From positions 1-32,184 of the forward strand of contig VAZU01000049.1 of the NCBI GenBank assembly GCA_005884745.1: a stretch of DNA of 32,184 nucleotides, written 5' to 3'. The notes beneath the pieces were generated by a model. It was not told the DNA's origin. It saw only the letters and a list, made by a program, of their open reading frames with translations, and ran no database searches. Both the position numbers and the translations under genes were made by a program. Numbering within the stretch: the first letter of the stretch is position 1; every line of letters starts with the position of its first letter. Of the stretch, positions 2,825 to 27,336 are shown one piece after another. The DNA comes from Alphaproteobacteria bacterium. GTDB lineage: Bacteria > Pseudomonadota > Alphaproteobacteria > Rhizobiales > Xanthobacteraceae.

Positions 2825-2849
2825 AACGCGGCACTTTCCCTGGAGTTCC
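2825..2849 (-). promoter_or_regulatory. EcfG-type (general stress response) promoter, exact GGAAC-N16-CGTT
   Basis: Plus strand reads AACG(2825-2828)-N16-GTTCC(2845-2849), which is GGAAC-N16-CGTT on the minus strand and points at ATG 2805. Confidence 0.7.
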
Positions 2850-2895
2850 TAGACCGACATACCGGCTCCTCTCTCGCACTCCGGCATCGAGCCGC

Positions 2896-2914
2896 CGCGG
2901 CCGCTGCGGCCGCG
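2896..2914. repeat. perfect 9+1+9 GC-rich palindrome between two divergent EcfG-type promoters
   Basis: CGCGGCCGC-T-GCGGCCGCG. Each arm also contains the GCGGCCGC palindrome. Confidence 0.6.
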
Positions 2915-2924
2915 AACGGGGCGT

Positions 2925-23345: not shown

Positions 23346-25114
23346 CACGCGAGGCTCCAGAACACCGTCCATGGCGGCAGCTCCGGCGGCGCCGCTCCGC
23401 CCCAGATGGCGCGGCCGTAAGCGGCTTGCGGCGGGCGGTTGCGCGGCTGCTCGCCGACATTGGCCACGAGCACGAGCCGGCTGCCGTCGTCGAGCCGCCA
23501 GTGGGCCGAAATCACCCCGTCGCGCCAGTCGGCATGCGCGTCGTTGCGCCCGAGAGCTTGCAAACGCGGCGTAACGTCTCCGCGGCGCAATGCGAGCAGT
23601 TTTCGGACGAGCGCCAGCCGCTCCTTGTGCGGCGAGCGATCGAGCGCGCTCCAGTCGAGCACGGCGGAGCGAAACGTCTCTTCCGCCATCGGATCCGGCA
23701 GCGCCAGCTCGGTGAGATCCGAATAGGCCGCCGCGAACTCCGCCTTGCGGCCGCGTCGCACCGCGTCGGCAAGCTCGCCGGCGAAATCGCAGAAGAACGG
23801 AAATGGCTGCACCGCGCCCCATTCCTCTCCCATGAACAGCATCGGCGGCATCGGCGCGAGCAGCATGATTTGCAGCGCTGCGTCGATCGCCGGCGCGGAT
23901 GCGAGCACGACGAGACGCTCGCCGAGCGGCCGATTTCCGATCTGGTCATGGTTTTGCAGAAAGCTGATGAAGGCGGCGGGCGGCAGCTCGGCGCTCGGCT
24001 CGCCGCGGCGAGCCCCGTTGCGATGCGCCGAGGGCTCGCCCTGATAGGCAAATCCGGACGACAGAATCCGGGCGAGCTGCTCTCCCGGCGCATGCCGGTA
24101 GTCGCGATAATATCCGGTTTGCTCGCCCGTCAGCAGCACGTGCCAGGCATGGTGATAATCGTCGTTCCACTGTGCGCGAAACTTGCCTTGCGGCGGATCG
24201 GCGAGCGGATCGAGCAGGCTCGCGCGATTGTCGTCGTTCTCGAGCATCAGATGAATGCTGCGGCCGGTCTGCGCCGCGAACGCGCCGACCGCCCGGCTCA
24301 GCTCGGCGAGGAGCGGCGGCTCGCCCGGCTCGACGATGGCGTGAACCGCGTCGAGCCGCAGTCCGTCGAAGCGGTAATCGCGCAACCACGCCAGCGCATT
24401 CTCGACGGCGAAGCGCCGCACCTGCGGCACGTTGTAATCGATGGCCTTGCCCCAGGGCGTGCCGTGCGCCGTCGTGAAGAACGCCGGGGCATAATGACCG
24501 AGGTAATTTCCCTCCGGCCCGAAGTGATTGTAGACGACGTCGAGAAACACCATCAGGGCGCGCTGGTGTGCCGCATCGATGAGCGCTCGCAGATCTTCGG
24601 GGCGGCCGTAGGCGCTGTCGGGTGCGAACGGCAGCACGCCGTCGTAGCCCCAGTTCCACCGTCCGGCGAAATCCGCGACCGGCATCAGCTCGATCGCGGT
24701 TAGCCCGGTGTCGACGAGGTGATCGAGCTTGTCGATTGCCGCGCGGAAAGTGCCGGCCGGCGTGAAAGCTCCGACGTGGAGCTCGAGGATCGCCGCTTCC
24801 GGCCACGGACGCCCGCGCCATTGCGGCGCGCGCCAGGCATAATGCGGGTCGACCACTTCGCTCGGCCCGTGGACATCTTCCGGCTGAAAGCGCGAAGCCG
24901 GATCGGGCACGATGAGATCGCCATCGATACGGAAGCGATAGCGGGTGCCCGGCCCGGCGTCCGGCATGGTCGCCTCGAACCAGCCCTGCGCTTGCGCCCG
25001 CATGGCATGGAGATCGTCGAGCACGAGCTCGACGCGCTTCGCGGCGGGAGCCCACAGCCGGAACGTCACGCCGCCTTCCGGGTTCAGCCGCGGTCCGAAA
25101 CCTGCCGCGGTCAT
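23345..25114 (-). CDS. treZ: malto-oligosyltrehalose trehalohydrolase TreZ
   Basis: Start at ATG 25114 gives MTAAGFGPRLNPEGGVTFRLWAPAAKRVELV... GH13 motifs are DVVYNHFGPEGNY, GLRLDAVHAI and ENDDN. The ATG overlaps the glgX stop (ATGA). Confidence 0.92.
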   Translation of the reverse strand: MTAAGFGPRLNPEGGVTFRLWAPAAKRVELVLDDLHAMRAQAQGWFEATMPDAGPGTRYRFRIDGDLIVPDPASRFQPEDVHGPSEVVDPHYAWRAPQWRGRPWPEAAILELHVGAFTPAGTFRAAIDKLDHLVDTGLTAIELMPVADFAGRWNWGYDGVLPFAPDSAYGRPEDLRALIDAAHQRALMVFLDVVYNHFGPEGNYLGHYAPAFFTTAHGTPWGKAIDYNVPQVRRFAVENALAWLRDYRFDGLRLDAVHAIVEPGEPPLLAELSRAVGAFAAQTGRSIHLMLENDDNRASLLDPLADPPQGKFRAQWNDDYHHAWHVLLTGEQTGYYRDYRHAPGEQLARILSSGFAYQGEPSAHRNGARRGEPSAELPPAAFISFLQNHDQIGNRPLGERLVVLASAPAIDAALQIMLLAPMPPMLFMGEEWGAVQPFPFFCDFAGELADAVRRGRKAEFAAAYSDLTELALPDPMAEETFRSAVLDWSALDRSPHKERLALVRKLLALRRGDVTPRLQALGRNDAHADWRDGVISAHWRLDDGSRLVLVANVGEQPRNRPPQAAYGRAIWGGAAPPELPPWTVFWSLA

Positions 25115-27189
25115 TCCGCTCCCTCGAACACCAGGACCGAGCGCGGCGGCGCTTCGCAGTGCGCTCCGACCCGATAGTCGGCGCCTGCGGGCTTTTTGGA
25201 CACGGGCACGGTGGCGAGAGCGCACAGCCAACGGGAGCACCGCGGCCACGCCGGCAGGATGAAGTCGATCGGCTGCTCCGCCGCGTTCAGCACGATGAAC
25301 ACCGGCGTGCCGTGCTCGCCGGGCGGGCCGAGCACGTAGGAAAGGTAGCGCGCCTCCGGAAACACCCAGTCGCGGTCCGTCATCTGGGTCGCGCGCGGGG
25401 TGAGCCAGAGCACGTCGAGGGAGCCATCCTGGCGGCGACCGACCAACCAGTGCCGCGGCCGGAGCTGCGCGAATTTCCGGCGCAGGGCCGCCAGGCTGGC
25501 GATGAGCTCGCTAAGATCCTCGCCCGGGCGGCCGAGCCCGGACCAATCGACCCAGCCGATCTCGTTGTCCTGGCAGAACGCGTTGTTGTTGCCGTTCTGG
25601 CTGTTGCCGACCTCGTCGCCGGCGAGCAGCAGCGGCACCCCCTGCGCCAGGAACAGCGAGGCGAGCAGATTGCGGCGCAGCGTGCGGCGCAGCTCAAGCA
25701 CCTTGGCATCGTCGGTCGGTCCTTCCACCCCGCAATTGGTGCTCCAATTCTCGTCGGAGCCGTCGTGATTTTCCTGGCCGTTGTCGTCGTTGTGCTTGTT
25801 CGAATAGCTGACCAGATCGGCCAGCGTGAACCCGTCGTGCACCGTCACGTGATTGATGCTGGCGCGCGGCGCGCGGCCGCGGCGGCGAAACAGGTCGGAG
25901 GAGCCGGTCATCCGCGTGCTGAGATCCCCGATCAGGTCTCCCTCGCCGCGCCAGCAGCGGCGCAGCGTGCGCCGGAACACGTCGTTCCATTCCGACCATT
26001 CCGGCGGGAAATTTCCGACCTGATATCCGCCGGAGCCGAGGTCCCAAGGCTCGGCGATCAGCTTGACTTTTGCCAGCACCGGATCCTGGCGAACGGCGCC
26101 AAAGAACGCGCTACGCGCGTCGAACCCGTTCGGACCGCGCCCCAGCGTGGTGGCAAGATCGAAACGGAATCCATCGACGTGACACACCTCGACCCAGTAC
26201 CGCAGCGAGTCCATCACCATCTGCAGGACGCGCGGGTGCTGCAAATTGAGTGCATTCCCGACGCCGGTGAAGTTCTCGTAGTAGCGGGGCTTGTCGGCGG
26301 CCAGCCAGTAATACGAAAGATTGTCGATACCGCGGAACGACAGCGTCGGACCCAGGTGATTGCCTTCGGCGGTGTGGTTGTAGACGACGTCGAGGATGAT
26401 TTCGATTCCGGCGTCGTGCAGCCGCGCCACGGTCGAGCGGAACTCGTCGAGCGCATGGTCGACGGCGTAGCGCGGCTCGGGCGCGAAAAATCCCAGCGTG
26501 TTGTAGCCCCAATAGTTCCGTAACCCGCGCTCGACCAGCAGCCGGTCGTCGACGAAGGCTTGGATCGGCAGCAGCTCGAGCGCGGTCACGCCGAGCCGTC
26601 TGAGGTGGTCGATCACGGACGGCGCGGCGAGCCCGTAGAAGAACCCGCGCCACCCGGGCGGCACGTCGTCGCGCAATTGCGTGAGCCCCTTGACGTGGGC
26701 CTCGTAGAGGATGGTGTCCTCCCATGCGATCCGCGGGCCGGCTCCGGCCCTCCAGGTGAAGGCTTCGTCGACCACCACGGATTTCGGCATGCCGCGGGCG
26801 TTGTCGCGACGGTCGTAGGAAAGGTCGGCGCGCGCGCTGGCCGTACGATAGCCGAAATGCACGTCGCTCCAAACCAGGCGCCCCGACAGGCGCTTGGCGT
26901 AAGGATCGACCAGGAGCTTGTTCGGATTGAACCTGTGTCCGCGCTCGGGCTCGTAAGGCCCGTACACGCGGTAGCCGTAGAGCTGCCCCGGAACCACATC
27001 GTCTACGTACCCGTGCCAGACGTCCTCGGTGCGCTCGGGTAAGGCGAAGCGCTCGAGCTCGCGCCGGCCCTGCCGATCGAACAGGCACAGCTCGACCTTC
27101 TCCGCATGCTCCGAGAACAGCGCGAAATTCGTGCCGCGTCCGTCCCATGTGGCTCCCAAGGGATGCGGGGTTCCGGCCTCCACCCGCAT
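25111..27189 (-). CDS. glgX: glycogen debranching enzyme GlgX
   Basis: 692-aa ORF MRVEAGTPHPLGATWDGRGTNFALFSEHAEKVELCLFD... Motifs DVVYNHTAEG, VDGFRFDLA and AEPWD are present. GGAGGG lies 5 nt upstream. Confidence 0.95.
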   Translation of the reverse strand: MRVEAGTPHPLGATWDGRGTNFALFSEHAEKVELCLFDRQGRRELERFALPERTEDVWHGYVDDVVPGQLYGYRVYGPYEPERGHRFNPNKLLVDPYAKRLSGRLVWSDVHFGYRTASARADLSYDRRDNARGMPKSVVVDEAFTWRAGAGPRIAWEDTILYEAHVKGLTQLRDDVPPGWRGFFYGLAAPSVIDHLRRLGVTALELLPIQAFVDDRLLVERGLRNYWGYNTLGFFAPEPRYAVDHALDEFRSTVARLHDAGIEIILDVVYNHTAEGNHLGPTLSFRGIDNLSYYWLAADKPRYYENFTGVGNALNLQHPRVLQMVMDSLRYWVEVCHVDGFRFDLATTLGRGPNGFDARSAFFGAVRQDPVLAKVKLIAEPWDLGSGGYQVGNFPPEWSEWNDVFRRTLRRCWRGEGDLIGDLSTRMTGSSDLFRRRGRAPRASINHVTVHDGFTLADLVSYSNKHNDDNGQENHDGSDENWSTNCGVEGPTDDAKVLELRRTLRRNLLASLFLAQGVPLLLAGDEVGNSQNGNNNAFCQDNEIGWVDWSGLGRPGEDLSELIASLAALRRKFAQLRPRHWLVGRRQDGSLDVLWLTPRATQMTDRDWVFPEARYLSYVLGPPGEHGTPVFIVLNAAEQPIDFILPAWPRCSRWLCALATVPVSKKPAGADYRVGAHCEAPPRSVLVFEGAE

Positions 27190-27310
27190 GCTAGCCCTCC
27201 GGGATTGAACGCACGTCGCGGATTTCTTTATGAGCGTCCAACGGGTTAGCCTGCTTTGCGGGGGACAGTTCGGGACTTATTTCGCGACTCTGCGCGCCGA
27301 TTGCGTTCCC

Positions 27311-27336
27311 AACGTCCATCCTCGGCCACCTGTTCC
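27311..27336 (-). promoter_or_regulatory. EcfG-type (general stress response) promoter, exact GGAAC-N17-CGTT, upstream of glgX-treZ-treY
   Basis: Plus strand reads AACG(27311-27314)-N17-GTTCC(27332-27336), which is GGAAC-N17-CGTT on the minus strand; 121 nt upstream of the glgX ATG 27189. Confidence 0.65.

Follow-up and report, generated by a model that had tools for sequence, protein, structure and literature searches.

Which sigma factor reads a region in which exact copies of one promoter motif stand in front of gene after gene, and what kind of gene set lies behind these promoters? A 32,184-nucleotide (nt) stretch of Xanthobacteraceae DNA (contig VAZU01000049.1), called the window in the following and meaning the whole stretch analyzed, raises this question. 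The motif is GGAAC-N16/17-CGTT, the consensus of promoters recognized by EcfG, the sigma factor of extracytoplasmic function (ECF) type in the PhyR-NepR-EcfG general stress response (GSR). Judged from its sequence, the window is very probably the core of a GSR gene block of about 44 kb from an uncultured soil Xanthobacteraceae, in which most units would be read from EcfG-type promoters. An additional, orphan copy of ecfG is located within the block.

Exact EcfG-type motifs are enriched in the intergenic DNA

A regular-expression scan of both strands of the window for GGAAC-N16/17-CGTT gave eight exact matches (Table 1). The preliminary description of this DNA had reported eight such matches, seven of them intergenic and directed at the next gene and the last one intragenic, and the scan reproduced all coordinates, strands and distances to the start codons. 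Its estimate of about 0.5 matches by chance also agreed with ours; dinucleotide-preserving shuffles gave an expectation of 0.50 matches, the highest count in a shuffle was four, and eight or more were reached in 0 of 100 (Poisson P = 6e-8 for at least eight matches in the whole window). Third-position G+C content (GC3), frame bias, Pfam, NCBIfam and a related contig used for comparison served to build a gene map. According to this map the intergenic DNA makes up 9.9% of the window and contains seven of the eight matches (Poisson P = 1.4e-13 for at least seven, with 0.0495 expected). All seven are oriented toward the next gene and are located 19-203 nt from its start codon. The downstream genes named earlier were confirmed by Pfam and NCBIfam: two small exported open reading frames (ORFs) without a family, DUF3309, DegP, an ECF sigma factor, a class A penicillin-binding protein (PBP) and GlgX.

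The eighth match, inside glgB, is most likely a chance match, since about 0.45 matches are expected in the approximately 29 kb of coding DNA in the window. An antisense transcript into glgB that starts from this site may be an alternative.

The density of the motif had been described as unusual, and this was borne out by comparison with about 1.5 Mb of related DNA. Outside the phyR-ecfG core, related Xanthobacteraceae DNA contained 18 exact matches in 1.509 Mb (0.0119 per kb), 12 of which were found in 1.139 Mb of genome DNA and six in 0.370 Mb of metagenome DNA. The baseline in the flanks of related Xanthobacteraceae loci is thus 0.38 matches per 32 kb, which is near the chance level, and the window with its eight matches is about 20-fold enriched. 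GSR genes may be overrepresented in the flanks of GSR loci, which makes this baseline a conservative one.

Spacers and flanks were found to differ among the exact sites of the window, and the sites are therefore not a repeat family. Neither Rfam families nor tRNAs were found in the window, so there is no evidence for an integrative element, a known riboswitch or a small RNA.

The motif marks stress response promoters in related genomes

A scan with one genome per species gave 80 loci, all from metagenome-assembled genomes (MAGs) of soil Xanthobacteraceae. Seventy-eight of these were canonical GSR loci, in which a NepR ORF runs up to ecfG and PhyR is encoded divergently. Of these 78, 76 have the exact motif at the promoter of nepR-ecfG and 68 have it at the divergent phyR promoter. 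Because both promoters are established as GSR-dependent, the search pattern is calibrated within the bacterial family.

Many canonical loci (e.g., L005 5891-7333; L053, L066, L127 and L175) had a further exact motif by phyR, at about 7300 or 8300 on the minus strand, which precedes a small ORF and then a gene for a YkuD L,D-transpeptidase. Several YkuD genes had GGAAC-N16-CGAT near their start; the YkuD gene of the window was found without such a site. In the genome of one canonical locus (L057, positions 1-6000), four exact motifs (45-, 80+, 480+ and 2655+) form a second, small cluster located 2-4.5 kb upstream of an otsA homolog with 43-47% identity. Other Xanthobacteraceae may therefore also have EcfG motifs grouped near trehalose genes.

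The promoter boxes are conserved in independent lineages

Upstream of orthologs from independent lineages, the -35 box (GGAAC) and the -10 box (CGTT) were found to be kept, with divergent spacers and flanks. In the region shared with L001, the locus whose sigma factor is closest to that of the window, all six promoters retained their boxes. The promoter of the sigma gene was compared in seven lineages (the window, L001, L101, L097, L103, L102 and L093), where GGAAC and GCGTT are nearly the sole conserved columns. For degP and the DUF3309 gene, the boxes are conserved in three lineages including the window. Both promoters are exact in L001 and L101, the former at 90-92 nt and with a 5' flank that could not be aligned, the latter with a divergent spacer. 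The otsA promoter is exact at 29-30 nt in L001, L093 and L096. Exact promoters were also found in L001 for the class A PBP gene (at 64 nt) and for the two small exported ORFs, sExpB (at 68 nt) and sExpA; the sExpA orthologs of L093, L094 and L096, with 67% identity, have GGAAC-N17-CTTT at 18 nt.

The motif was absent upstream of the glucose/sorbosone dehydrogenase (GSDH) gene, the gene of a 142-aa exported protein (exp142), the DedA operon and the aldo-keto reductase (AKR) gene in the window, and it is thus not simply placed in front of every gene. It was also absent upstream of the GSDH, exp142 and DedA orthologs.

Candidate promoters with one mismatch

The window contains 25 matches with one mismatch, 20 of which are located within genes. 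Such sites were retained only if they were located 29-44 nt from a start codon and were conserved in other lineages, which left candidates upstream of the Host_attach, DUF2188 and UdgX genes (Table 1). The GCAAC variant upstream of the Host_attach gene was found at 33-34 nt in L001, L101 and L097 with differing spacers. The Host_attach gene of S. melonis depends on EcfG, and GCAAC...CGTT precedes its coding sequence (CDS) by 34 nt. The DUF2188 candidate is conserved in L001, and the DUF2188 homolog of L014 has an exact motif 31 nt upstream. GGAAC-N16-GGTT was also found upstream of the UdgX gene in L001, at 39 nt and with another spacer.

The UdgX candidate promoter would tie this DNA-damage protein to the GSR. 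The one-mismatch match at 3705-3729(+) was dropped since it lies inside the UdgX gene, and those at 2079(+) and 2142(-) since they lie inside the exp142 gene.

An orphan EcfG paralog is located within the block

The product of the sigma gene contains Sigma70_r2, Sigma70_r4_2 and PhyR_sigma2 domains according to Pfam, and it scored 309.5 bits against the NCBIfam model NF009192, which is marginally over the cut-off of 307 bits. It is an EcfG-family protein, since it is 74-82% identical to the sigma factors of the 78 canonical loci. No phyR was found in the window. In the leader of 200-330 nt upstream of the sigma gene, nothing significant was found for nepR by ORF listing, by tblastn with canonical NepR or with a NepR hidden Markov model (HMM) made from the 78 loci, where the best E-value was 0.06 in a database of 15 sequences. 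The orphan-clade loci L001, L093, L097, L101, L102 and L103 were likewise without nepR and phyR. Because neither gene is adjacent, the sigma factor of the window is regarded as a non-canonical orphan paralog and not as the primary EcfG.

A protein search placed the sigma factor in a distinct orphan clade with the signature residues VPRLRAF, LSYEE and RLEFEELP, in which the closest relative (L001) has a sigma factor 94% identical to that of the window. The signature substitutions of the clade fall outside the DNA-binding segments, and no differences between orphan and canonical copies occur in the sigma2 and sigma4 segments. A metagenome scan gave just four new orphan-clade contigs, and the remainder were canonical loci. 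P0018 was considered as the canonical EcfG of this lineage and was rejected, as its contig has the orphan context with the divergent Host_attach gene.

The Host_attach/baeRF_family12 gene is the conserved divergent neighbor of the orphan sigma gene (the window, L001, L097 and L101) and occupies the position that phyR has in canonical loci. The linkage of otsA, sExpA, GSDH and sigma genes was preserved in L093, a lineage with 83% identity. On the other side, the adjacency of the sigma and DUF3775 genes was kept in L001 and L102, and the two genes are probably co-transcribed.

The sigma gene may start at ATG 8752, which gives 234 aa and was the choice of the gene caller, or at ATG 8875, which gives 193 aa. 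The window, L001, L097 and several metagenome proteins share an ATG with the start MSNGKKHR... (8752-8874 in the window), and L101 has MGNGKRHR instead. Most lineages keep this ATG in frame with sigma, and gene callers therefore give sigma factors of 225-234 aa. In L097 it is out of frame with sigma, and conservation is poor in the middle of the stretch. The promoter is as far from the sigma core as the length of promoter plus nepR in canonical loci. The 8752-8874 stretch may represent an N-terminal extension of basic character, a leader ORF or a remnant of nepR, the last of these being a speculative idea.

The block extends beyond the window on both sides

Contigs from several soil metagenome assemblies that are 98-99.5% identical to the window extended the block in both directions. 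On the left side they complete otsA, whose exact motif is located about 29 nt upstream of the start codon and about 860 nt to the left of the window. A divergent exact motif at the same place would serve an ORF of 116 aa, otsC (a major facilitator superfamily (MFS) transporter), otsB and GH15; this arrangement is that of the EcfG-controlled otsCB-otsA locus of B. diazoefficiens. On the right side an exact motif is located about 42 nt upstream of glgE and about 3.2 kb right of the window. The glgE gene heads a glgE-treS/mak-glgB operon and is divergent from malQ. Altogether, 11 exact matches were found in about 44.7 kb (Poisson P = 2e-10), and 10 of them are intergenic and correctly oriented. 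For one protein of the island, the index of the assembly collection lists 153 blocks.

Two adjacent GH15 genes (TREH_N + Glyco_hydro_15, of the trehalase or glucoamylase type) follow otsB at 16901-20321 in L081-L086, and the block may therefore also encode trehalose breakdown.

Gene content of the window

About 16 transcription units touch the window. Nine of them have an exact promoter, three have a conserved one-mismatch site and four have none. The features are listed in Table 1.

Table 1. Genes and EcfG-type promoter motifs of the window. Distances are to the start codon of the gene named.
Feature	Position	Strand	Remarks
otsA, 3' end	1..633	+	own exact promoter lies left of the window
Thivi_2564 small membrane gene	882..709	-	downstream of DUF2188 gene
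DUF2188 gene	1440..1156	-	Pfam/NCBIfam
TGAAC-N16-CGTT, candidate	1485..1509	-	44 nt upstream of DUF2188 gene
exp142, 142-aa exported protein gene	between DUF2188 and sExpA genes		without motif
sExpA, small exported ORF	2805..2485	-	106 aa, no family
Exact promoter, N16	2825..2849	-	19 nt upstream of sExpA
Exact promoter	2925..2949	+	62 nt upstream of sExpB; divergent partner of the 2825..2849 site
sExpB, small exported ORF	3012..3353	+	113 aa, no family; divergent to sExpA
UdgX-family uracil-DNA-binding protein gene	3999..3373	-	TIGR03914, E=7e-88; KRRLH loop
GGAAC-N16-GGTT, candidate	4029..4053	-	29 nt upstream of UdgX gene
GSDH gene	between UdgX and DUF3309 genes
Exact promoter	5549..5573	+	30 nt upstream of DUF3309 gene
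DUF3309 gene	5604..5756	+
Exact promoter	5829..5854	+	93 nt upstream of degP
degP	5948..7450	+
mscL	7903..7478	-	after Host_attach gene
Host_attach/baeRF_family12 gene	8419..7958	-
GCAAC-N17-CGTT, candidate	8454..8479	-	35 nt upstream of Host_attach-mscL
Exact promoter of orphan ecfG paralog	8524..8548	+	203 nt to ATG 8752; 326 nt to the more conservative ATG 8875
Orphan EcfG-family (ECF15-like) sigma gene	8752..9456	+
DUF3775 gene	9503..9961	+	46 nt downstream of sigma gene
AKR gene	after DUF3775 gene	-
DedA, amidohydrolase, periplasmic binding protein, YkuD and SBP_bac_3 genes	between AKR and class A PBP genes		gene run in this order
YkuD gene	14624-15313
Exact promoter	16499..16524	+	67 nt upstream of class A PBP gene
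Class A PBP gene	16592..19431	+	frameshifted in the window
ORF without known function	19445..20467		340 aa; after class A PBP gene
glgX-treZ-treY operon	27189..20433	-	overlapping genes
Exact promoter	27311..27336	-	121 nt upstream of glgX-treZ-treY operon
glgB and 3' part of treS-mak	27885..32184	-	distal genes of the glgE-treS/mak-glgB operon
Exact match	29527..29552	+	inside glgB, antisense; seen only in near-identical strains

Two deletions were seen relative to near-identical contigs. The window lacks 73 nt at 17168/17169, inside the class A PBP gene, which are present in seven of seven near-identical contigs spanning the position (L087-L092 and L100). The missing nucleotides encode the GT51 transglycosylase motif ...GGSTITQQ..., and without them the gene falls into two frames. 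L088-L092 carry an intact gene of 970 aa, and in L001 it forms a single frame. The gap represents either a real pseudogene or an assembly error. The second deletion, of about 31-33 nt at 12072/12073, is located in the 5' part of the amidohydrolase gene (about 11915..13329); it was seen relative to six of six near-identical contigs (L081-L086) and alters the frame of the N-terminal approximately 50 codons. No obvious direct repeats flank either deletion.

Which sigma factor reads the promoters

The explanation that we favor for the window is the one stated at the outset, a GSR gene block read from EcfG-type promoters, as had also been proposed in the preliminary description. The calibration within the family, the identity of the sigma factor, the footprints in other lineages and the published EcfG regulons all lend support to this proposal. 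Not covered by that description were the orphan status of the sigma factor, the three conserved one-mismatch sites and the continuation of the block past both ends of the window. Upon stress, PhyR would be phosphorylated and sequester the anti-sigma factor NepR, whereby EcfG would be freed; phyR and nepR are presumably encoded elsewhere in the source genome. RNA polymerase carrying EcfG would then begin transcription a few bases downstream of each CGTT. The genes expected to be switched on are those of three trehalose routes and the GlgE alpha-glucan pathway (otsA, otsC-otsB, glgX-treZ-treY and glgE-treS/mak-glgB) together with envelope and periplasm functions (degP, the class A PBP, mscL, the small exported proteins and DUF3309).

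The second, orphan copy of ecfG inside the block would be switched on as well, from its own EcfG-type promoter and with no nepR to be co-transcribed. With this promoter, the lack of nepR and the invariant sigma2 and sigma4 segments, the orphan sigma factor is predicted to recognize the same promoters. There are known cases of orphan EcfG paralogs under the control of the primary EcfG, and in Caulobacter sigU acts below SigT. By analogy, the orphan ecfG probably amplifies the output of the same promoters by feed-forward or positive feedback. An amplifying or prolonging role has been reported for sigU and for ecfG1 of S. granuli.

A further-reaching version sees the block as a 'regulon in cis'. 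Here the orphan EcfG, made from a promoter of its own type while NepR is not co-amplified, would raise sigma relative to anti-sigma factor after the response has fired. It would thereby lock on a linked cassette for osmotolerance and desiccation tolerance of at least 12 units (all trehalose routes, the GlgE alpha-glucan genes and envelope repair), which soil Xanthobacteraceae would inherit, and possibly exchange, as one unit of about 44 kb; the MSNGKK leader could then be a nepR remnant. We put this forward as a tentative proposal that is unlikely to hold in full.

It is also rather improbable that the orphan sigma factor, and not the EcfG controlled by PhyR and NepR, is the main or only sigma factor of the block, which would then be a self-contained, autoregulated local regulon largely uncoupled from NepR. 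The sigma gene does lie inside the block behind the same type of promoter and without nepR, and its linkage to otsA, sExpA and GSDH is kept in L093. EcfG paralogs of R. etli and S. granuli are known to contribute unequally at different promoters. The position of the clade signature substitutions can also be counted in favor of such a regulon. However, the DNA-binding sigma2 and sigma4 segments do not differ between the orphan and the canonical EcfGs, and the promoters of the block are indistinguishable from the canonical phyR and nepR-ecfG promoters. Homologous trehalose genes are under a single canonical EcfG in B. diazoefficiens and S. melonis, and a purely autoregulated sigma factor without input would have no trigger.

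It is very improbable that the promoters belong to a different ECF sigma group sharing GGAAC/CGTT-like boxes. The autoregulated phyR and nepR-ecfG promoters of 78 related genomes carry this very motif, the only sigma factor encoded in the block is an EcfG homolog, and the gene content fits published EcfG regulons. A chance or compositional artefact, or dispersed copies of a repeat, is effectively refuted: the sequence is GC-rich and the AAC...GTT core is its own reverse complement, which gives a weak mirror match at each site, but none of the shuffles reached the observed count (P <= 6e-8), seven of eight matches are intergenic and oriented toward genes, the spacers and flanks of the sites are unrelated to one another, and the boxes are conserved across lineages.

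Some observations weigh against the explanation favored here. Between the promoter of the sigma gene and the start codon there are 200-330 nt, a long distance for such promoters. The glgX and glgE promoters were seen in near-identical strains only and are otherwise supported by analogy with published regulons. The one-mismatch class shows no intergenic enrichment; the Host_attach, DUF2188 and UdgX sites therefore stay candidates, for which the evidence consists solely of position, conservation and one literature parallel. Since GGAAC/CGT-like boxes are common to many ECF groups, the assignment to EcfG leans on the calibration within the family and on gene content. We infer a canonical phyR-nepR-ecfG locus in the source genome because this locus is near-universal, and in the density comparison the flanks of canonical GSR loci served as a proxy for the window's own genome.

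All parts of the block fit known categories, i.e., the EcfG-type promoter, the content of a GSR regulon and a non-canonical EcfG paralog, and the known mechanism is unchanged. What is unusual is the density of the promoters (at least 10 in about 44 kb), the presence of the sigma gene among its presumptive targets, and candidate targets that are undocumented in the EcfG literature examined (the class A PBP, DUF3309 and UdgX). The analysis provides a partial, phylogenetically supported GSR regulon, derived from sequence alone, for an uncultured and widespread lineage of soil Xanthobacteraceae. Every trehalose route and the GlgE pathway would be tied to EcfG at one locus. New candidate EcfG targets are the class A PBP, DUF3309, DegP, MscL with Host_attach, UdgX and the two exported proteins without a family. 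The block also offers a compact natural system for asking about the role of orphan EcfG paralogs, which the literature still calls unresolved.

Comparison with known systems

The EcfG literature examined did not document the class A PBP, DUF3309, degP or UdgX as EcfG targets, and nothing usable was found that links DUF3309, degP or mscL to EcfG. That literature also holds no description of targets clustered around the sigma gene, a point at which no search was aimed. In B. diazoefficiens otsCB-otsA and treS are controlled by EcfG in a regulon of more than 100 genes. In S. melonis treY/malQ/treZ/glgX are EcfG-dependent, with motifs mostly within 100 bp of the CDS, and the regulon of S. granuli comprises 79 transcription units. 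The block shares the GGAAC-N16/17-CGTT consensus with the PhyR-NepR-EcfG regulons (EcfG of B. diazoefficiens and S. melonis Fr1, RpoE2 of S. meliloti and SigT of C. crescentus), and also the targets otsA/otsCB, treS, treY-treZ-glgX, Host_attach, small secreted or hypothetical proteins and envelope functions. Its promoters are likewise mostly within about 100 nt of the CDS. The block differs from these regulons by packing at least 10 exact and three near-exact promoters into about 44 kb around a sigma gene, and by having neither phyR nor nepR.

Compared to the canonical phyR/nepR-ecfG locus, the arrangement around the sigma gene is similarly divergent: EcfG-type promoters lie on both sides, and the sigma gene follows its promoter after about 350 nt. 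Unlike in the canonical locus, the position of phyR is taken by Host_attach/baeRF_family12 and then mscL, behind a GCAAC variant of the -35 box, and the position of nepR by a leader without detectable NepR homology.

Extra EcfG copies without a cognate NepR are well documented (SigU of C. crescentus and EcfG2 of R. etli), and their role is described as unclear. EcfG2 of R. etli is not autoregulated and uses a different promoter pattern. As is the case for SigU, R. etli EcfG2 and EcfG2-6 of M. extorquens, the window contains an extra ecfG without adjacent nepR or phyR. Like sigU, this copy is located behind an EcfG-type promoter, which implies a cascade or a feed-forward arrangement. In contrast to the known orphan paralogs, it may have about 40 additional N-terminal codons for a basic, poorly conserved extension, its product is as close as 74-82% in identity to canonical EcfGs, and the gene sits among its presumptive targets.

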